Assembly: GCF_001677475.2 (NCBI RefSeq)
Contig: NZ_CP012497.1
Source of the DNA: Escherichia coli
GTDB taxonomy: Bacteria > Pseudomonadota > Gammaproteobacteria > Enterobacterales > Enterobacteriaceae
Reading direction: 5' to 3' (one strand)
Length of the DNA stretch: 64,000 bases
Shown here piece by piece: positions 1,595-10,056 of the stretch. The position numbers and the translations under genes are program-made. The notes beneath the pieces are model-generated. The model saw only the letters and a list, made by a program, of their open reading frames with translations, made no database searches and had not been told where the DNA came from. How positions within the stretch are numbered: the stretch's first letter is position 1; each line of letters starts with the position of its first letter.

Positions 1595-2593
1595 TTATCC
1601 GTTACCGCACGACGGTTTCTGCGTGATAAACGTCTCAAGCATCTTTTCCGCAATTGCCGACCAGGTGTGACACTGGACCTTTTCAGCATTTTTCACGCGA
1701 TCAACGCGAGCAATAACCTCATCCCAATCAATCCGCGACTTGATAACCATATGGTTCACCAAAGCCAGGCGATCTGGCGGAAGGCAATCGGGAGGCGTTA
1801 ATACCAACGCCCCGCACATTGCCGCCTCAAGAACAGTTAATCCAAGGCTTTCGGGATGCGTAACGATAAAAACGTCACTCTTACGCAATTCAGCTGCAAA
1901 TTCGGTTGCTGGCACCGGCGTCCGTCTGTATGGAATTACCGAAATATTCCCCGGATCAATGGTAACCAATCCGTCATCAGTCAACGTTCTGGCCTCATAC
2001 GGAACGGTCAGACGCTGAAGGTTCATAAGGATACTTAAGGAGTGATCAAAACCACTAACATCAAATGCAGCGTGGTCTACAAAAATACGCAGAACATCGT
2101 CTGTTTTGGTTTCCAGATGGAACAGATCCTGATTCGCTGCCCATCCAACATGTTTGTTAAAGCGATTATGACGCTCTAACCTGCCGGGATTATCCAGGTA
2201 CCGCCAGGTATCATCGCGGACAGTAAAAGTAATATCGACTGGTGCCGAATCCAGCATAGAACCGTCGTATACCTGGGCTACCCATCCAGTGAATCGACGA
2301 CGCAGTTGCACGCCTATTTCCCTGGGCACCGTAGTAAAATACCGCAATCCTGGCGCTAAAATGGCTTTCGCAGAACACGAGGTCGCAGCGGTCAACACAG
2401 CTTCAACATAATCCTCCGGGCTTTCGACGCTGGGGGAATATGGACGATGGTATTGCAATGTTACCCCTGCCTCACTAAAGGCGCAGGCCAGGTTATAAGC
2501 CCACATTTCCGTATATGTTTTCACATCACTGATAGCTTCAAATTTTCGCCCAATGATCAGGATGTTCATCGGCTTTTCCTCATTCCATTGCAT
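1595..2593 (-). CDS. hypothetical protein downstream of ban (positional equivalent of P1 dbn)
   Basis: 332-aa ORF immediately downstream of and abutting the DnaB-like gene on the same strand. Confidence 0.45.
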   Translation of the reverse strand: MQWNEEKPMNILIIGRKFEAISDVKTYTEMWAYNLACAFSEAGVTLQYHRPYSPSVESPEDYVEAVLTAATSCSAKAILAPGLRYFTTVPREIGVQLRRRFTGWVAQVYDGSMLDSAPVDITFTVRDDTWRYLDNPGRLERHNRFNKHVGWAANQDLFHLETKTDDVLRIFVDHAAFDVSGFDHSLSILMNLQRLTVPYEARTLTDDGLVTIDPGNISVIPYRRTPVPATEFAAELRKSDVFIVTHPESLGLTVLEAAMCGALVLTPPDCLPPDRLALVNHMVIKSRIDWDEVIARVDRVKNAEKVQCHTWSAIAEKMLETFITQKPSCGNG

Positions 2594-3962
2594 TAATAAT
2601 CCTCTTGCCAGTCAGCACCGGCATAGTTATCAAACCGTGAGTATTGGCCGTTAAAAGCCAATCTCACCGTGCCAATTGGGCCATTTCGTTGCTTACCGAT
2701 AATTACCTCGGCAATGCCCTTCATTTCGCTATCCGGGTGATAAACTTCGTCACGATACAGAAACATGATCAGGTCTGCGTCCTGCTCAATTGCTCCTGAT
2801 TCACGTAAATCTGAATTTACCGGTCGTTTGTCCGCACGCTGTTCAAGCGATCGATTAAGTTGTGACAATGCCACCACCGGTACTTGTAATTCCTTCGCCA
2901 AAGCCTTCAGTGAGCGAGAAATCTCGGCAATTTCCAGCGTTCGGTTATCTTGCAGCTCGGGGACGCGCATAAGTTGCAGGTAGTCGATCATAATCATGCT
3001 CAAACCACCATTTTCTTTATAAACACGACGAGCGCGGGAACGAAGCTCTGTAGGTGTCAGGGCGCTTGAGTCATCAATAAAAATATTCTGCTTGTCCAAC
3101 AGAATCCCCATTGCGCCAGAAACCCGCGCCCAATCCTCGTCGTTAAGTTGCCCTGTTCGAATACGAGTCTGATCAACGCGTGCAAGAGAAGCCAGTGAGC
3201 GCATCATCAGCTGGTGGCTCGGCATCTCAAGGCTAAAAACCAATACGGGCTTATCGTTACGGACTGCGGCATTTTCGACGAGATTCATCGCAAACGTAGT
3301 CTTCCCCATCGATGGGCGGGCGGCGACAATAATGAGATCGGACGCCTGAAGTCCTGCCGTCTTCTTATTGAGATCGGTAAATCCGGTATCAAGCCCGTTA
3401 CACCATCATGCGGTCGCTGAAACAACTCTTCTATGCGAGATACCGTTGCATCGAGAATGCTGGCGATATCTTTTGGACCACTACCGCTCTTTTGTCGTTT
3501 TTCAGCTATTTCAAAAACGCGGCGCTCGGCCATATCCAGCAATTCATTGCTGCCCCTGCCATCCTGCGCATATCCAGCTTCAGCTATTTCATTTGCGACG
3601 GAAATCATTTCACGAACAACCGCGCGTTCACGAACGATATCCGCATAAGCACAAATATTTGCCGCGCTGGGCGTGTTCTTTGACATCTCCGCAAGGTACG
3701 CAAAACCACCGGCGCGTTCTAATTTACCGTTCTGTTCAAGTGCTTCAGCAAGTGTTATCAAATCAATCGGTTTGCCATGACTTAATAACCTCTCCATCTC
3801 ACTGAAAATTTCACGATGAGCACTGGTATAAAAATCATCAGCAACTATACGATCTGCAACTTCATCCCAGCGGCAGTTATCAAGCATTAAGCCACCAAGT
3901 ACAGCTTGTTCTGCACTAAGGGAATTTGGCATGGATTCAAGAGGGGATGCAGACATTAGCAC
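2593..3962 (-). CDS. ban: DnaB-family replicative helicase (P1 Ban-like), frame broken by a 1-nt indel
   Basis: N-terminal ORF 3285-3962 matches the DnaB N-domain up to HDGVTG; C-terminal ORF 2593-3309 starts MGKTTFAMNLVENAA (Walker A) with full RecA-like core; an alternate frame reads DTGFTDLNKKTAGLQASDLIIVAARPS bridging them; break at about 3388-3392. Confidence 0.85.
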
Positions 3963-4241
3963 TCCACCCAGGCGTGCTGAATGTCAGATATAATCGGCAT
4001 ACTCAAATCACTCCTAACGATATGAGTCATCACCAGAAAATCAGGATTAATGCGCCGGACTCTTCCCGGCTGTCACACCGAATCGCCAGGATGGTGAGTC
4101 CCTGTATCCGCTATCCCTCCAACGGTGACTTGCACATTTCGGCTACCTGGTTTGTTGCCTGAGCTAGGGGAAAAGGTAACCCCTTTAACGTTACCAGACC
4201 GCTAACGACGCATGTGCCAGACGCCGTGTTACAACCAAATA

Positions 4242-4317
4242 TGGTGGCCCCTACCGGACTTGAACCGGTGACCGTGCGATTATGAGTCGCCAGCTCTAAC
4301 CACTGAGCTAAAGGGCC
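4242..4317 (-). tRNA. trnI: tRNA with CAU anticodon (Ile2/lysidine-type-like, or Met)
   Basis: Reverse complement folds as a cloverleaf GGCCCTT..GCTCAGTGGTTAGAGC..CTCATAA..GGTTCAAGTCCGG..AGGGGCCACCA; close to the E. coli ileX sequence as recalled; CCA encoded. Confidence 0.8.
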
Positions 4318-4320
4318 GGA

Positions 4321-4428
4321 TTACTGTTTCCTAAGTGCTTCAATGGCGCTAACAATACCGCCTACAACTATGGCAACAATGATAATGAGAACAATTGGAT
4401 ACTTATCTGCAAAATCCCAGAAGCTCAT
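4321..4428 (-). CDS. tiny hydrophobic membrane protein (35 aa)
   Basis: Hand-translated MSFWDFADKYPIVLIIIVAIVVGGIVSAIEALRKQ; start ATG overlaps the upstream stop (TGATG); not in the ORF track because under 60 aa. Confidence 0.35.
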   Translation of the reverse strand: MSFWDFADKYPIVLIIIVAIVVGGIVSAIEALRKQ

Positions 4429-4592
4429 CACTGATCCTTCGAGGCTGGTTTAAATATCGGCCATACCAATGTTACAGCTACTGCTACCAACGCCCCGTCG
4501 GATAAAACCGACAGGATTGTGCTGGTGAAATCCACCAGCACAGATAGCACGAGAAAAACCAAAGCCAGAATTAGACGTGCTTTTATAACCAT
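4428..4592 (-). CDS. small membrane protein (54 aa)
   Basis: Hand-translated MVIKARLILALVFLVLSVLVDFTSTILSVLSDGALVAVAVTLVWPIFKPASKDQ; start overlaps the TerB-like stop (TGATG), suggesting translational coupling. Confidence 0.4.
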   Translation of the reverse strand: MVIKARLILALVFLVLSVLVDFTSTILSVLSDGALVAVAVTLVWPIFKPASKDQ

Positions 4593-5017
4593 CAGATATA
4601 CTGTTCCAGTGGCAATTGAAGAGCCTGGGCAATTTTCTTCAATTGCTCCTGCTCTTCTGCCCCAATGCCATCCTGGTCAGCAATATCAATGCATAGGCAC
4701 AGAACATCTACCGCATCATTAGTTCCAGACACGTCAGCCAGTTCACGTAAAGCCTGGGCATTCGCTCGGCGCGGCGAGGCTTCATATTGAGCGCGAATAT
4801 TGGCGCTCATCTGGGCAATTTCACCGGAGAACGGCGCAAAGGCAGGAAGTGCTGCAATGGTTTTTTCCAATACTGCAATTTCTTTCGCATCGCAGGTGCC
4901 GTCAGAGTATGCAATGGAATATGCGCCCCAGACAGTCGCTTCCACCGCATCACGGTTTTCCATCTTCTTGACTCCGCCAGCCGCTTTGCGGAATTTCTTT
5001 TTGAGAATACCGAGCAT
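4592..5017 (-). CDS. TerB-like protein (P1 Tci-type)
   Basis: 141-aa ORF with TerB-domain character (AYSDGTCDAKEIAVLEKTIAALP, acidic C-terminus); position between the tRNAs and ban matches the P1 tci cluster. Confidence 0.55.
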   Translation of the reverse strand: MLGILKKKFRKAAGGVKKMENRDAVEATVWGAYSIAYSDGTCDAKEIAVLEKTIAALPAFAPFSGEIAQMSANIRAQYEASPRRANAQALRELADVSGTNDAVDVLCLCIDIADQDGIGAEEQEQLKKIAQALQLPLEQYI

Positions 5018-5193
5018 TTATTAACCTCATTACTGGTTGGGAAATAAGGTTGCGGTGCCGGGTGCCTCCCGGTGTCCTTTGGCTGGTTATCCACCGTGGA
5101 CGGGGAAATAAGGAGAAATAATGGACAGATATAACCATTTCCCCGCGTGCGCTTAGCCGCATTCACCGCAACGGAAAGAGCATTCCTGGTGGA

Positions 5194-5944
5194 CCTGTAG
5201 ATTGGGATATGAACCCGTTACAGGAGAATGCTCTTACCTGTTACGTGCTCCGTTTCGTGGAGCTAACGGCGGGTGATCGGGCCGCACCAGACTGGACTTA
5301 TTTCAGCGTTATGCTCATGCCAGAGAATCAAACTGTGATGGTCGGTGCTGAACTCCGACACAGGGTTGTAGCAAGCCCCGCAAAGCGCGCACTACTGTAG
5401 TTGCGGCACATCAGCCTGTGCATTCACCACAATGTTGAGAACACTGGTTGTCACGCTGCAACGCAACATTTATTCGTAGATTGGGATATGACCCCGTTAC
5501 GCCAGTGTTCTCAACGTTGTAGTGCCGGTTACGGTTCCGGCCAGGCCTCTTCCTCAACGGGGTGTTCTCCATACGGACTACCGTTTATTGGTCGTTCCTG
5601 CGGTTTATGTTGTGAAGCCAGATGCTTATCTTCTGGTTGCTTCAAAGAGCTGCACTTCATCACAACGGTAAGAGCACTCGATGCATTTAAGCCAAGCCCC
5701 ATAAGGGAGAATGCCCTTACCTGTTGTGTTGTGATGACCGGTGCTGATCTCCGGCTTGCGGTTATTTCAGACTCTCACGGGCGTTTAATTGCCCCGCCGA
5801 ACAGCTCTTTTCCGCAATAGCTGCAATGTCTTTCGCGCATCAGCCTGCGCATTCATCACAACGGTAAGGGTACTTCGTAGGGATTCGAACCCTCTGCCAA
5901 GCTCGGCGATCTCCGACGTCGCAAAATACCCTTACCTGTTGTGC
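5194..5944. repeat. array of short repeats and tRNA-like remnants
   Basis: Two copies of a 25-bp palindrome-flanked core GTAGATTGGGATATGA(A/C)CCCGTTAC (5194-5224, 5475-5501); motif CCTTACCTGTTGTG/CTTACCTGTTACG at 5225-5250, 5706-5738, 5921-5944 and again at 6365-6390; no convincing ORF. Confidence 0.4.
5868..5931 (-). other. tRNA-like fragment (T-arm and acceptor remnant)
   Basis: Contains GGTTCGAATCC T-loop and a D-arm-like GCGA..TCGC, but does not fold into a complete cloverleaf. Confidence 0.3.
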
Positions 5945-6020
5945 TGGTGCCGATTAACGGACTCGAACCGCTGACATCCTGCTTACAAGGCAGGCGCTCT
6001 ACCAACTGAGCTAAACCGGC
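5945..6020 (-). tRNA. trnT: tRNA-Thr (anticodon UGU)
   Basis: Reverse complement GCCGGTTTAGCTCAGTTGGTAGAGCGCCTGCCTTGTAAGCAGGATGTCAGCGGTTCGAGTCCGTTAATCGGCACCA folds as a canonical cloverleaf, CCA encoded. Confidence 0.85.
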
Positions 6021-6025
6021 ATTGG

Positions 6026-6098
6026 CGATGGTGGATGGATTTGAACCATCGACCCGTTGATTAACAGTCAACCGCTCTAACCGCTGAGCTACACCATC
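6026..6098 (-). tRNA. trnA: tRNA-Asn (anticodon GUU)
   Basis: Reverse complement GATGGTGTAGCTCAGCGGTTAGAGCGGTTGACTGTTAATCAACGGGTCGATGGTTCAAATCCATCCACCATCG folds as a cloverleaf; 5 nt from the tRNA-Thr. Confidence 0.85.
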
Positions 6099-6763
6099 AC
6101 TTGCCGGGTACGTCTCCGGCGAGGGCTTCCACCTCCGTATGCTTTTCGGCGCACCGCGCCCTGGCTGCAATTCGGTAACAGGGGATGCACAACCCTGGCT
6201 TCCAGCGTGATTAGCGCCTTCAGCATGACGGGATATACCCGTAAATTCGTGGAACTGTACCCAAAGTGCTGTTAAGCACCGCTGTTACGCTGAAAAGAAA
6301 ACGCAACAGGAAAGGACGCTGACCAACAGATGGCCCCTTCTCGTTCATCTGGTTAATCACACCAGCGCCCTTACCTGTTGTGCCTCCCCGTTCCCTAATA
6401 CACAGACGGGGACACTCTGCGGTCGATTTTTTGACGGGGGACGACTCATACCCCGTGGCATCTGGCTTCTTAGGCCGCTACCATCATCAGATCATCGTTT
6501 GCATTTACTTTAATGGTCAGTTTCTAAACCGCCGCAAAGTCGCTAACTATGACGAAAACCCTGAAAAAAACGCCCACCCGAAGATGGGCAAACTGGAAGC
6601 TCGTAACGCACTTCGGCGTTGCCACTTAGGCGCATGGTCAACCTGGCAACTCGGTGGTTTGTCTGGGAGGACTAGGCCCAGCCATGCTTACCGCCGCGCC
6701 TGTCGCGGCTAACAGCTAAATCGCTCTATAAATCACGATTCATTGAGGCGATATTACACTAAT

Positions 6764-6780
6764 AAATTTATTAGAGCAAT
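6764..6780. promoter_or_regulatory. P1 C1 repressor operator, perfect consensus match, with overlapping promoter for the tRNA-tci-ban operon
   Basis: Reverse complement is ATTGCTCTAATAAATTT (17/17 to the C1 operator consensus); just downstream of the dmt stop and upstream of the tRNAs on the minus strand. Confidence 0.7.
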
Positions 6781-6799
6781 ATACCCAAAACGTCATGAG

Positions 6800-9700
6800 C
6801 TACACCTCGAGTGTCCCCTTACAAGACACAGAACGTCTGGCAAAAAGAGGTTCCACTCTGAAGCCACTGTCATGATAAAGCTCTCTGATGTTTGGCGCGC
6901 CACTGTTAGTAATGAGAACCTTTGCACCTCGACGATGAGCATCCGTCAACAGAGACACCAGGCGTTTTTGCTCTTCAAACTTAAAGTCATGACCGGAATA
7001 GTTCGTGAATCCCTCTGTATTTGGAAGCGGTTCATACGGCGGATCGCAAAAGATGACATCTCCTTCTCCGGCAGCTTCAATCACCGCTGCAAAATCACCG
7101 CATACAAACTCAGACCGCCCTTCCGCACCGAGGAAGGCTTCCATCTCCTGTAATGGGAAATACGGAGTTTTATACTTCCCGTAACCGACATTGAACTCAC
7201 CGGCCTGGTTGTAACGCGTCAATCCGTTAAAACAATGTCGGTTCAGGAACAAAAACGCCGCTGCGCGATGTAAATCATCATAGACTTGTTTGTTAAACGC
7301 ATTCCGTACTGCCAGGTATCCTTCCTGTGTGTTGTAGTCCTGGAAGAAACGATGTGCCAGAGTGATAAGTGAATGCGCCTCGCGTTGCAGAGTCTTGTAA
7401 AAGTTAATCAGGTCAGCATTCACATCATTTAGCAGATTTTCCTGGTATCCGGCATTCATGAAGACAGCTCCGCCACCAACGAAAGGTTCAATCAGGCGCT
7501 TCCCTTCTGGCAAATAGCGAAAGATTTGTTCCAGAACACCAAATTTTCCACCAGCCCATTTGAATATGGACCGTTCGAATTCTGCCGCTGGTTTAACTTT
7601 TCGCTCTTTTGTTTCACTTCCTTCTTTCTGCCGACATACGGCCTTAGTAATCCGATCGCCAATCCAGCGCATTACTGGTATTGCCATACTATTGCCGATC
7701 GCTTTGTAACGCGGTCCGTCAGCTGCAAGCATCGCGGCCTCTTCTTCGCTTAAATCTGGATAGTGATTGCGAAGATATGCCAGTTCATCTGAATTAACTT
7801 TTTTACGCTTTTCCGTCGGGATCAACGTATGCCCATCAGGAAAACCTTGCAGCCTTTCACATTCGACAGGGGTAAGACGGCGGACAGCTACTTCTGCGTT
7901 TCTTACTTCATAGCAAACAGCTGTTGGATTTTTAGCCATTAGAGATGGTGAAGTATTCTTAGTTGCAGCATGTTGTGTACCGCTCATACGCTCAGGAAAA
8001 GCCAATGTAACAAGATGCTCATGGCTTTCTTGCTCACGTGCCCGCAATGTACCATGCCCTTCTGACCAAAAACCTGCTCCTGTGCTGCTAAAAACGGCAA
8101 GGTCAGTGGCATCTTTAAAATCTCTTGCCTTTACTGTCGATGCGGTTTCATCGTCAATATATTCCCCAAATGCCGCCATCCTGAAAGCGTTTACGGCTTT
8201 CGTCGATTTCATACCGGGTGGCATGTCAGCGTGTAGGCATGGATTTAGGCTTTCGCCACTGATTGCAGCGCCATTTGCAATAATGGCGGAAGCGATTTCC
8301 TTCTTTTTTCGGCTCGGCGCAATATTCCGGCGCACGCCTTCGAACTCAAAAAGTACCGTTGCGGGATCGAGGTCTGTTCGAGCACTTGCGACAACAAACA
8401 CGCGTCGGCGTCGTTGTGCCACTCCGAAGTATTGGGCATCAAGGATTCTCCAGGCCACCTTTCGCTGCGGTCCATAAATACAACCACACTGCGGCCACTT
8501 TGGAGCATGGCAACCGGTTTTGCCATCCCACCGCCAGAACGCGTTACTTTTTCCTGATTCAGGTCGATCACCTGGTTCAAATGGCGCATCTTCTCCAGCC
8601 AATCCGGCAAGGAAACATCCGAAGGCGTTATCTGCCGATGACAGGACTCCTGGGACATTTTCCCAGACGATAACTGTCGGTTTGAGGAAGGACTCAGACC
8701 GTTTGTCGTCAATTGCATTTGCAAGCTCCACATACTTCAAAGTTAGCGCGCCGCGTTCATCATCAAGCCCACCACGTAAGCCCGCGATACTGAATGCCTG
8801 ACAGTTATGGACCACCGCACCATTGAGGATATAGGAATGATCACCTTCGACTTCTATGTTGTATACAGTATCTAGGCCTACCGATTTAAACTCTTTGACT
8901 GTTCGTAAAAGCATTCCATGAGCCAATCTTGATTTACGTGACAATTTCTGCGGGCAGATTGTTACCTGATAATAATTCCGTTGATTTACCACGCGATCCT
9001 CGATCACTTTTTTGGGCTCAACTTCAATAAAGCTGACCGAAGAAACATAACCACAAGTCTGTGACAACCCCGCAACGCCCCAAGCAAGCGCAGGACTAAC
9101 ACTATTAATTCTAAATCCCGCTTTACCACTTGGTGTCCCATCAGTATCAAGATAGCCTTGTAAAAACACATGACGCAATGGATGCGACATCACCCATGCA
9201 GGGATACGCTTAGCATGGCTTAACTCGCCAAAATGTTCATTAAGCCAATTGGCATAACACGTATCATTCAAGGTTACTTTGATGCTCCCTCGGATTTCGC
9301 TTGCCACGGAAAATATGTTTTCTGGTATGCGGCAATGAAACTTTCTCAATTTCTGGCAATTTATGCCAAAAACAACCGCCTTCTTAGATTTACCTCTCCA
9401 TCTCCTAATATATCCATCGCCAACATAAGCGCCCGCAAGATACATAGCCTGTTCTTCAGACAAGAACCGAGAACAAATATCTGGAGATGCAATATTGAAA
9501 TTAGTTAGAGCGCACCATTGATATCCCGGCATATCACATGCTGCTCGCCATTCCGGTTCAGACAACAACTCTCTCTTAAAATATGTGCCATTTTTCCGGG
9601 TGTTTTGGGCTTTCCACCGAACAGCCAGGAAGGGATGGTCATTGGTTGTTCTTATACCTAAAGGCTGCCCAACGGCATTAAGTAACCCCGTATTAGCTAT

Positions 9701-10056
9701 TTTTGAACCAACTCTTTTTACTTGTTGTAACCGCCCGAGATGACTGACTACGTAATCGCCAGGGCAAACATCTTCTATTGGTTTATAACCATTTTTACAA
9801 AGAACCATATGCCCCGCGGTAAAACATGGTGTTCCCCGACGAGCACGTCAGGGGATTCGATTTCCCCAGCCAAGACTTTTTTGGCAAGTTTTGTCATGTC
9901 GCCAAGGTTGGCGACATGGGGCCAGCGGAGCGCAAGAACGGCAGATGGAAAAGGCTCGATTTCAGCAAACCACGCCGGACGCATACCCAACGGTTCCCAG
10001 GCAATACTCGCGGCTTCAATTCCACTGCAAACAGATCCATAGCACAGCTCTTTCAC
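6800..10056 (-). CDS. dmt: bifunctional DNA methyltransferase (C5-cytosine domain plus Dam-like N6-adenine domain), intein-containing, frame broken near 9834-9837
   Basis: C5-MTase motifs [40 protein letters not shown]; Dam motifs FVGGGAV and DPPY at the C-terminus; GTG start overlaps the hrdC stop; the N-terminal 77 codons are in a different frame, joined across a C-run. Confidence 0.85.
8804..9826 (-). mobile_element. intein with LAGLIDADG homing-endonuclease domain, inserted at the catalytic Cys of the C5-MTase
   Basis: 341-aa insertion starting CFTAGHMVL and ending ILNGAVVHN followed by Cys+1 of CQAFSIAG; LAGLIDADG-like motifs [13 protein letters not shown] and [11 protein letters not shown]. 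Confidence 0.75.

Follow-up and report, generated by a model that had tools for sequence, protein, structure and literature searches.

What is a gene for a TerB-like protein, chained to two very small hydrophobic ORFs, doing among the tRNA genes upstream of a DnaB-like helicase gene? The locus lies in a 64,000-nucleotide stretch of Escherichia coli DNA (the window; NZ_CP012497.1). Alignment shows that its genes are tciA, tciB, and tciC in the C1-repressed ban operon of a P1-like phage-plasmid. Across positions 4200–5200 the window is 99.6% identical at the DNA level to Salmonella phage SJ46 and 97.9% identical to P1, onto which its features map one to one. The three genes are already known, having been annotated in GenBank AF234172 in 2004; since then the P1 annotation has also included their order, the tRNAs, and the promoter under repressor control. 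A 2022 description lists the locus among the variable regions of P1-like phage-plasmids. In the order in which the operon would be transcribed, its features are:

6751–6796, minus strand: Pban promoters P2ban and P1ban with the bivalent C1 operator Oban-ab (6780–6753), placed by mapping to P1
6554–6656, minus strand: the "dicF-like region" of P1, ending in a hairpin (6590–6571) and a T-run, placed by mapping to P1
6023–6098, minus strand: tRNA-Asn (GTT), from ARAGORN (Rfam tRNA 74.5 bits)
5945–6020, minus strand: tRNA-Thr (TGT), from ARAGORN (Rfam tRNA 72.9 bits)
5018–5944, minus strand: repeat-rich structured noncoding leader, from repeat families, folds, Rfam, and mapping to P1
4592–5017, minus strand: tciA, encoding a 141-aa soluble TerB-family protein (ATG at 5017, TGA at 4594–4592)
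4428–4592, minus strand: tciB, encoding a 54-aa hydrophobic DUF3927 protein (ATG at 4592–4590, TGA at 4430–4428)
4321–4428, minus strand: tciC, encoding a 35-aa predicted single-pass membrane peptide (ATG at 4428–4426, TAA at 4323–4321)
4242–4317, minus strand: CAU tRNA, ileX-like (tRNA-Ile2; trnI in P1), the right-hand boundary of the cassette, from ARAGORN and the P1 annotation
2593–3957, minus strand: ban (DnaB-like helicase), the last known Pban-driven gene, from ORFs and alignment

The order tciA-tciB-tciC-trnI and its context are common to the window and P1 (GenBank AF234172 / NC_005856), as are both stop/start overlaps and the 3-nt gap before trnI. Relative to P1, the window carries an SJ46-type allele of tciC and of the last TciB residues (TciC differs at 9 amino acids), one additional 196-nt repeat unit upstream, and an intein in dmt. 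The arrangement described in the initial annotation holds up well. Its TerB-like ORF agrees with the curated P1 annotation and with the Pfam TerB score of TciA, its two hydrophobic mini-ORFs of 54 and 35 aa lie on the minus strand at the coordinates given and are tciB and tciC, and TGATG chaining is found on that strand at both the tciA/tciB and tciB/tciC junctions. The tRNA, said to begin 4 nt past the last stop, follows a 3-nt TCC spacer and starts at the fourth base. The ORF tool reports tciC as 36 aa, counting from a GTG at 4431.

Control of the operon follows P1 closely. Positions 6780–6764 read ATTGCTCTAATAAATTT, a base-for-base match to the P1 C1 operator Oban-a, and an inverted repeat was detected at this Oban-ab site; the elements of P1ban lie at 6779–6774 (−35) and 6756–6751 (−10). 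The proposal of a single operon read from this operator-controlled promoter stands for the layout and the operator, both as in P1, but a strong intrinsic-terminator-like hairpin with a T-run (6590–6564, terminator scan) lies between Pban and the tRNAs, so expression from Pban needs read-through. In P1 the bac mutation at Pban renders ban constitutive, an effect that implies read-through past this hairpin. No terminator-like sites were predicted on the operon strand from tRNA-Asn to ban. A promoter scan of positions 3900–6900 returned zero sigma-70-like sites, but it also misses the documented Pban and is therefore too insensitive to exclude internal promoters. Aligned with the ban genes of P1 and SJ46, the window's own copy shows a 1-nt deletion near 3393 that splits it in two.

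The leader between tRNA-Thr and tciA holds several repeat families, with predicted folds reaching z-scores of −2.9 to −5.3, and a related repeat unit outside it (6390–6295) folds with z −5.6. An Rfam scan of the leader for families of the DicF, AgvB, AsxR, and Pas types gave only a sub-threshold STnc100 match: an STnc100-like element at 5170–5051, directly 5′ of tciA, scores 39.2 bits (gathering threshold 47). Rfam gives no match to DicF in the dicF-like region. The strand opposite the leader carries plp and upl in the P1 annotation. At the other end of the cassette, the call of a tRNA-Ile2-like gene is borne out by the CAU anticodon, the ileX-like body, and the correspondence to P1 trnI; judged by sequence, the gene is assigned to the ileX type of tRNA-Ile2 and does not have a tRNA-Met body. 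It is 89.5–90.8% identical to a chromosomal tRNA-Ile gene (RefSeq label) present in 5425/5426 E. coli genomes. The ARAGORN label "tRNA-Met" derives from the anticodon alone.

By profile comparison, TciA is a full-length TerB homologue. Pfam TerB (PF05099) scores 28.4 bits against it (cut-off 24.4, E 2.1e-06), and a TciA-family profile (95 members) matches Klebsiella TerB (PDB 2JXU) over residues 11–149 with E 1.5e-26. Residues G40, E46, G117, and E122 are near-invariant in the family, and two DGxxxxxE motifs are conserved. AlphaFold2 predicts six helices (pLDDT 91.6). Foldseek found only a weak PDB match for this model (TerB-like 2H5N, E 0.042) and did not recover 2JXU among its PDB matches; the claim of homology to TerB is carried by the sequence profile. 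TciA is 100% identical in amino acids to its P1 counterpart, has zero transmembrane segments, and carries 7 Lys/Arg within its first 18 residues; a GAGG Shine-Dalgarno lies 7 nt 5′ of its ATG. Mass spectrometry of P1 preparations recovered two TciA peptides (PMC9024508). This partial experimental support for translation concerns TciA alone among the three products.

The two small genes follow without a gap. The tciA stop and the tciB ATG share an A (TGATG), and the tciC start likewise overlaps the tciB stop (TGATG), with an AAGGA Shine-Dalgarno 6 nt upstream. From this geometry only, we infer that tciABC may be translationally coupled; in relatives the junctions are TGATG, TAATG, ATGA, or GTGA overlaps, or gaps of ≤3 nt. 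TciB matches Pfam DUF3927 (PF13064) at 101.3 bits (cut-off 25, E 2.7e-29), its residues 2–54 spanning positions 1–53 of the 53-position profile, and its family is phrog_1470; TciC falls in phrog_23152 (E 1.9e-26), so that all three products are assigned to PHROG families. Both small proteins are strongly hydrophobic with basic ends. AlphaFold2 models TciB alone as one long helix, a model compatible with either a hairpin or a single-span topology, and the hydrophobic core of TciC covers residues 12–29. The idea that DUF3927 mimics a segment of TerC was rejected after a profile comparison with phage TerC gave a probability of 0.1%.

Does the arrangement persist beyond this plasmid? The ORFs, the overlapping junctions, and the short tRNA gap are kept in P1, P7, SJ46, D6, and four P1-like or D6-like plasmids, and the expectation that related phage-plasmids would conserve the mini-ORFs was thus confirmed for both tciB and tciC. 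Together with the Pfam and PHROG matches, this conservation speaks for an arrangement that did not arise by chance. P7 and D6 encode a TerB only ~30% identical to TciA, yet have nearly the same C-terminal part of TciB and nearly the same TciC, which argues that any contact of TciA with TciB and TciC must use very conserved surfaces. More widely, 13/16 loci examined from very different phages have a DUF3927-like ORF adjacent to the TerB gene or overlapping it. They come from phage-plasmids of Klebsiella and E. coli, metagenomic contigs, Pseudomonas phage ZY21 (Nickievirus), an Erwinia jumbo phage, and P1-like, lambdoid (Fostie, JLK-2012), and N4-like (Pollock, SP-076) phages. Outside the P1 lineage these pairs (PHROGs 632 and 1470) form the same two-gene unit of abutting or overlapping ORFs as in the window, often with tRNA genes close by, and do not include TciC. 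Their carriers include strictly virulent phages, and in lambdoid phages the homologues lie 3′ of Q: the order in JLK-2012 is Q, tRNA-Asn, tRNA-Thr, tRNA-Gly, tciA, tciB. We considered whether the P1 and lambdoid modules of tRNA-Asn/Thr plus TerB are shared DNA and rejected this; JLK-2012 carries other alleles of tRNA-Asn and tRNA-Thr, so what is common is the organisation and not the DNA.

Within P1-like phage-plasmids the locus corresponds to "variable region 7," which about half of the subgroup 1 members lack (PMC9603915). CRISPRi found tciA, tciB, and tciC each to be non-essential (PMC10695390), and tciABC is dispensable for plaque formation. In RCS47 the place of tciABC is taken by an SPFH/Band 7 lipoprotein, the borders of the swap lying in the STnc100-like stem (window 5043) and, at window 4326, in the final 6 nt of tciC together with the tRNA. 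Judged from these alignments, the cassette occupies a swappable slot. The RCS47 gene sits in exactly the same position, from the STnc100-like leader to trnI, and its product is likewise envelope-associated, but it differs from TciABC in having an unrelated fold and in being a single protein of 275 aa (labelled "putative serine protease" in its record).

Taken together, the explanation we favor, and consider on balance probable, is that TciA-TciB(-TciC) is a dispensable envelope module of lytic growth. Loss of C1 repression would switch the operon on early in lytic growth, and tRNA-processing enzymes would cut the polycistronic RNA at the flanking tRNAs, leaving tciABC on a message whose 3′ end lies 3 nt past the tciC stop. 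With no good Shine-Dalgarno of its own, tciB would be translated by ribosomes that finish tciA and reinitiate at the overlapping ATG; tciC would be read through its own AAGGA together with the overlap, a scheme under which the three products would be made together. TciA, soluble and all-helical, with a basic N-terminus and its two DGxxxxxE motifs conserved, would be anchored to the inner membrane through TciB (the DUF3927 protein), joined by the single-pass TciC in the P1/P7/D6 lineage. The complex would be a dispensable accessory module acting on the envelope of the infected cell, most likely by buffering membrane or ion stress or by blocking entry of superinfecting phages or colicins during phage replication, and would not be a prophage-expressed determinant of tellurite resistance. 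Lytic timing is suggested by the C1-controlled promoter and by homologues in virulent phages and downstream of lambdoid Q; membrane location by the hydrophobic TciB and TciC with their basic ends and by the N-terminal Lys/Arg cluster of TciA; and an accessory envelope role by the CRISPRi non-essentiality, variable region 7, and the SPFH swap in RCS47. The 13/16 loci speak for a partnership of TciA and TciB, and the TerB-containing anti-phage systems supply an analogy. Several observations weigh against the explanation: the hairpin between Pban and the cassette, the weak sequence constraint on tciC, the single long helix modelled for TciB, the divergent TerB of P7 and D6, and the lack of any PADLOC relation to known defence proteins.

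A broader proposal, which we advance tentatively and rate as possible rather than probable, is that TerB plus DUF3927 (joined in one lineage by TciC as a third subunit) constitutes a widespread two-component phage membrane module that, during lytic growth, excludes superinfecting phages and colicins or neutralises host membrane-surveillance immunity based on TerB. Its carriers would then be phage-plasmids and lambdoid, N4-like, and jumbo phages, and in P1-like elements it would fill a cargo slot, bordered by the sRNA-like leader and tRNA-Ile2, in which envelope-acting genes are exchanged. Since TerB domains occur in anti-phage systems as presumed membrane sensors, the phage module is a reasonable candidate for a role in superinfection exclusion or counter-defence.

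Comparison with host defence bears on the second of these roles. The initial annotation had noted that TerB-like proteins with small membrane partners recur in stress and phage-resistance contexts, and the literature agrees on phage resistance: Dionysus, Shango, and Bunzi are anti-phage systems in which TerB proteins work alongside membrane partners, and a role in membrane survey has been proposed for these proteins. Dionysus (DinA, DinB, DinC), Shango (SngA), and Bunzi (BnzA) resemble tciABC in combining TerB-like with membrane proteins at a mobile or variable locus. They differ from it in that tciABC has no helicase, ATPase, MAEBL, or pore-forming-toxin partner and is encoded by phages, virulent ones included, whereas these systems reside in host defence islands. 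For tciABC itself, such a link finds no backing in PADLOC. Neither TciA, TciB, nor TciC matched PADLOC-DB 2.0 at E up to 1 (the library predates Dionysus), an NCBIfam search gave no meaningful match, and partner genes of Shango and Bunzi (helicase/ATPase or other) are absent from the operon. Filing the cassette under a known defence system was rejected, the PADLOC result being empty. A counter-defence function, in which the phage TerB and its anchor serve as a decoy or antagonist of TerB-sensor immunity (Shango, Bunzi, Dionysus) or of other membrane-triggered abortive infection, would fit the spread over virulent and temperate phages, the expression during lytic growth, the highly variable accessory slot, and the proposal that TerB domains are membrane-surveillance modules in several defence systems. 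We nevertheless judge it unlikely, as defence TerB proteins go unmatched in PADLOC even at an E of 1; E. coli K-12, in which P1 grows normally without the tci genes, would not show such a role either way.

The favored explanation assigns TciC to the complex in the P1/P7/D6 lineage, to which the peptide is confined. Alternatively, tciA, perhaps with tciB, could be the sole gene here, with the 35-codon tciC frame open by chance and serving, untranslated, as a spacer or as the 5′ leader of the tRNA. The window and P1 give this some footing: 13/21 of their differences fall in tciC (9 nonsynonymous and 4 synonymous), with neither a third-position bias nor a synonymous excess, which suggests only weak constraint on the sequence. 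An open frame of 35 codons arising by chance is not very improbable, PGAP annotation of the plasmids gives just the TerB and DUF3927 genes (in an incomplete gene table), and a TciC-like ORF following DUF3927 was not found outside the P1/P7/D6 lineage. Against it, none of the four alleles seen, not even the D6 type with only 29% amino-acid identity, interrupts the frame, and each of them, in phage and plasmid loci, keeps the overlapping start, an AGGA-type Shine-Dalgarno, an N-terminal M.FW...DK.P motif, the hydrophobic core, and a basic C-terminus. Where TciC of the window and of P1 differ, moreover, all nine substitutions are conservative (Ile/Val, Val/Ala, Ala/Gly, Ser/Gly, Ala/Val, Tyr/His). 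We therefore regard an untranslated tciC as improbable, the case for the gene being made by retention of the ORF, the Shine-Dalgarno, the conserved FW..DK.P motif, and hydrophobicity.

Finally, the "tellurite resistance" label under which TerB plus DUF3927 recurs in many unrelated phages is unsupported by its context. The terZABCDE operon offers the obvious comparison, since its TerB (Klebsiella, PDB 2JXU) is homologous to TciA over the full length, about the same size, all-helical, and equipped with two DGxxxxxE motifs, and the ter operon of IncHI2 plasmids confers resistance to tellurite and colicins and inhibits phages (PMC9603915, PMC8123226). tciABC differs in having none of the partners TerZ, TerA, TerC, TerD, and TerE: terZ, terA, terC, terD, and terE are absent from the operon, and no TerC or TerD gene adjoins tciA. 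In place of TerC, the membrane partner adjoining TciA is a DUF3927 protein of 54 aa, which has no profile similarity to TerC, and tciA, unlike terB, is phage-borne behind a lytic promoter. The least probable reading, lysogenic conversion in which TciABC from the prophage gives tellurite or colicin resistance or inhibits division as the plasmid ter operon does, can draw on a true full-length TerB homologue, on the IncHI2 precedents, and on a weak internal promoter compatible with the insensitive scan, but it is hard to reconcile with a cassette behind a C1-repressed promoter in an operon missing all five of those ter genes, with the occurrence of the TerB/DUF3927 pair in N4-like and jumbo phages, which are strictly virulent and have no lysogenic state, and with absence of the cassette from about half of the close P1-like phage-plasmids. 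Carriage by virulent phages, a promoter repressed in the prophage, and the lack of terC, terD, and terE argue against the label and for a membrane function in lytic growth. No test of the P1 tci genes for tellurite, colicin, or phage inhibition turned up in the literature searched. From Pban to dbn the operon contains tRNAs, noncoding RNA-like DNA, tciABC, and ban only.

The pairing of a TerB gene with a DUF3927 gene, as in the tciABC cassette of phage P1, is general, whereas the third gene, tciC, is not. The cassette itself is a rediscovery of already annotated genes: nucleotide identity over window 4200-5200 is 99.6% with Salmonella phage SJ46 and 97.9% with P1, and both annotate the three ORFs as tciA, tciB, and tciC and the tRNA as trnI. 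To this annotation our analysis adds that the pairing is general and TciC confined to one lineage, together with the exact boundaries of the cassette and an SPFH lipoprotein as alternative cargo. The genes lie as follows.

5017-4592, minus strand, tciA (ORF, 141 aa)
4592-4428, minus strand, tciB (ORF, 54 aa)
4428-4321, minus strand, tciC (ORF, 35 aa)
4317-4242, minus strand, tRNA with CAU anticodon (ARAGORN), 3 nt past the tciC stop

The initial annotation had this ORF chain, its overlaps, and the tRNA spacing correct to the base. At the tciA/tciB and tciB/tciC junctions, both TGATG, stop (TGA) and start (ATG) have the A in common; the ORF listing gives tciC as 36 aa, counted from a GTG one codon 5′ of the ATG. 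Shine-Dalgarno sequences precede tciA (GAGG, 7 nt 5′ of the ATG) and tciC (AAGGA, 6 nt 5′ of the ATG), and inspection of the tciB start found no convincing one, making tciB the gene that leans most on re-initiation. ARAGORN calls the CAU tRNA "Met" from its anticodon; because the tRNA is 89.5% identical to a chromosomal gene annotated as tRNA-Ile and present in 5425/5426 complete E. coli genomes, the Ile2-like reading proposed initially is favored.

TciA scores above the Pfam TerB threshold, and an exhaustive search found relatives in 140 clusters, nearly all stand-alone proteins of ~145 aa. A profile from 95 TciA relatives matches Klebsiella TerB (PDB 2JXU) over the whole length (E 1.5e-26), four residues that mark two DGxxxxxE motifs (G40, E46, G117, and E122) are near-invariant in the family, and AlphaFold2 gives a confident model with six helices (pLDDT 91.6). 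No transmembrane segment is predicted in TciA, two peptides of which were recovered by mass spectrometry of purified P1 preparations (PMC9024508). TciB matches the full length of DUF3927 (E 2.7e-29; family phrog_1470), and both TciB and TciC (family phrog_23152) are hydrophobic.

Judged from sequence, tciC is probably translated, though its status is less secure than that of tciA or tciB. Four alleles occur across P1, P7, SJ46, D6, and four plasmids, all with an open frame, a start overlapping the tciB stop, and an AGGA-type Shine-Dalgarno 5′ of the start, and the gap from the tciC end to the tRNA is 3 or 9 nt throughout. The D6 allele is only 29% identical, yet retains M.FW...DK.P along with a hydrophobic core and a basic tail; it is an unannotated 37-codon ORF (D6 locus L004, NC_050154.1, 3766-3879; MMDFWTYIDKNPGWSLLFLLVIVYGVEQVAKNLRRRK) that overlaps the D6 tciB homologue at the stop codon of the latter and terminates 9 nt 5′ of the CAU tRNA. 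The window differs from P1 at 21 sites in 1001 nt, 13 of them in tciC (9 non-synonymous and 4 synonymous, with third-position bias absent), and the nine amino-acid changes are all conservative for a membrane helix; constraint on the tciC sequence is weak. Separately, one database protein (P0003, 196 aa, from a single Logan contig) carries TerB and DUF3927 fused in one chain; this single occurrence probably reflects a frameshift at the TGATG junction and not a natural fusion.

TciA-like genes are present in 128 phage records. Pairing was examined at 16 loci, 13 from phages and 3 on metagenomic contigs, and in 13 of the 16 the TerB gene has a DUF3927-like ORF abutting or overlapping it: P1, P7, and D6, the lambdoid phages Fostie and JLK-2012, the N4-like phages Pollock and FSL SP-076, an Erwinia jumbo phage, Pseudomonas phage ZY21 (genus Nickievirus), two phage-plasmid-like elements of ~84-109 kb (Klebsiella ST13-OXA48phi12.3 and E. 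coli CMS-2020a), and two metagenomic contigs. Lacking the pair are a Vibrio phage in which TerC sits between two TerB genes, Pseudomonas phage PMBT3, and metagenomic contig L021. At the examined loci, the pair is followed by a hydrophobic third ORF only within the P1/P7/D6 lineage. JLK-2012 has a P1-like organization (Q, tRNA-Asn, tRNA-Thr, tRNA-Gly, tciA, tciB), although its tRNAs are other alleles than those of P1. Plasmid matches number >1100, ~500 of them at only 60-80% identity; the plasmids listed as examples in this band are ~100-120 kb long and carry TerB and DUF3927 annotations. In the literature searched, DUF3927 is mentioned only in one work on phage-plasmid antibiotic resistance (preprint and journal versions), which uses the term once.

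The cassette occupies a slot whose content is exchanged. A survey of P1-like phage-plasmids treats tciABC as "variable region 7," absent in about half of subgroup 1 (PMC9603915). Homology between phage RCS47 and the window stops at window 5043, where a sub-threshold STnc100-like stem ends, and restarts at window 4326, with the final 6 nt of tciC, TCC, and the tRNA. In RCS47 the slot encodes a protein of 275 aa (RCS47 locus L005, 3902-4729, FO818745.1) whose product name, "putative serine protease," appears wrong; the protein has an SPFH/Band 7 domain (E 9.7e-31) and bears a lipoprotein signal (…LCLTGC). Both alternative cargos would thus be envelope-associated. The match to STnc100, a prophage sRNA family, that forms the tciA leader (window 5051-5170, minus strand) scores 39.2 bits, below the gathering score of 47; this element is retained where P1-like phages have replaced tciABC and so delimits the slot on the left. 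A 2026 preprint places TerB among the conserved neighbors of prophage sRNAs PasA and PasC, with STnc100 hits frequent nearby.

The cassette lies behind a lytic promoter. The curated P1 record gives the order dmt, P2ban and P1ban (together Pban), a dicF-like region, tRNA-Asn and tRNA-Thr, plp/upl (on the opposite strand, between tRNA-Thr and tciA), tciABC-trnI, and ban and dbn, with a bivalent operator of the C1 repressor, Oban-ab, overlapping both promoters. Features placed by alignment of the window with the P1 locus are as follows.

6780-6764, minus strand, Oban-a, sequence ATTGCTCTAATAAATTT
6779-6774 and 6756-6751, minus strand, P1ban -35 and -10
6656-6554, minus strand, dicF-like region

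The interval 6764-6780, initially read as an operator-controlled promoter, thus coincides exactly with P1 Oban-a. A strong terminator-like hairpin (6590-6564, minus strand; 8 bp, UUCG-type loop, then a T-run) closes the dicF-like region ~160 nt downstream of Pban. It is the only such site predicted on the operon strand from the promoter to ban, and Rfam does not recognize 6554-6656 as DicF. Transcription from Pban must read through this hairpin, which could bound a short sRNA and attenuate the operon. The P1 bac mutation at Pban makes ban constitutive, so read-through takes place. As tRNAs flank the genes, tRNA processing would cut the transcript 3 nt past tciC. The tci genes are detected in P1vir transcriptomes during infection. 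In a CRISPRi knock-down, tciA, tciB, and tciC were non-essential for P1 plaque formation (PMC10695390).

We propose that TciA, TciB, and TciC would be produced together and that TciB (in this lineage also TciC) would tether TciA to the inner membrane. The complex may act on the infected-cell envelope, as a buffer against membrane or ion stress or as a barrier to superinfection and colicin entry. Counter-defense against TerB-based immunity (Shango, Bunzi, Dionysus) is a live rival to this envelope role, although PADLOC similarity is absent. The "tellurite resistance" label is unlikely to fit, because the promoter is repressed in the prophage, the cassette is without a terC, terD, or terE partner, and the pair also occurs in phages that never lysogenize.

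Two neighboring genes have broken frames. The DnaB-like helicase gene ban (window 2593-3962, minus strand) has a 1-nt deletion near 3393 relative to P1 and SJ46 (GGGACTT to GGGCTT) that leaves two ORFs, of 225 and 238 aa, representing either a pseudogene or an assembly error. The dmt gene (window 6771-10056, minus strand) contains an intein (CFTAGHM…VVHN) directly before the catalytic Cys of its C5-methyltransferase motif, between GTP and CQAFS, an insert shared with RCS47 Dmt (1095 aa). Two single-nucleotide deletions in G5 runs (9837/9838 and 6818/6819), apparently homopolymer sequencing errors, break the dmt frame in the window.

Five long-stem RNA-like units lie in window 5018-5944 and 6295-6390 (minus strand), with the common sequence ACAACAGGUAAGRG…CYCUUACCGUUGUGAUGAAUGC plus a small GC hairpin and fold z-scores of -3.2 to -5.6. 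The unit at about 5870-5935 has a canonical T-arm (GGGUUCGAAUCCC), and the D6 record has a doubtful tRNA-Ser annotation in the corresponding position. Compared with P1, the window has one additional 196-nt unit (5868-5673). The P1 ORFs plp and upl, which may be spurious, run antisense to the units, and pieces of this DNA are 96-98% identical to unannotated lambdoid and Stx phage DNA.
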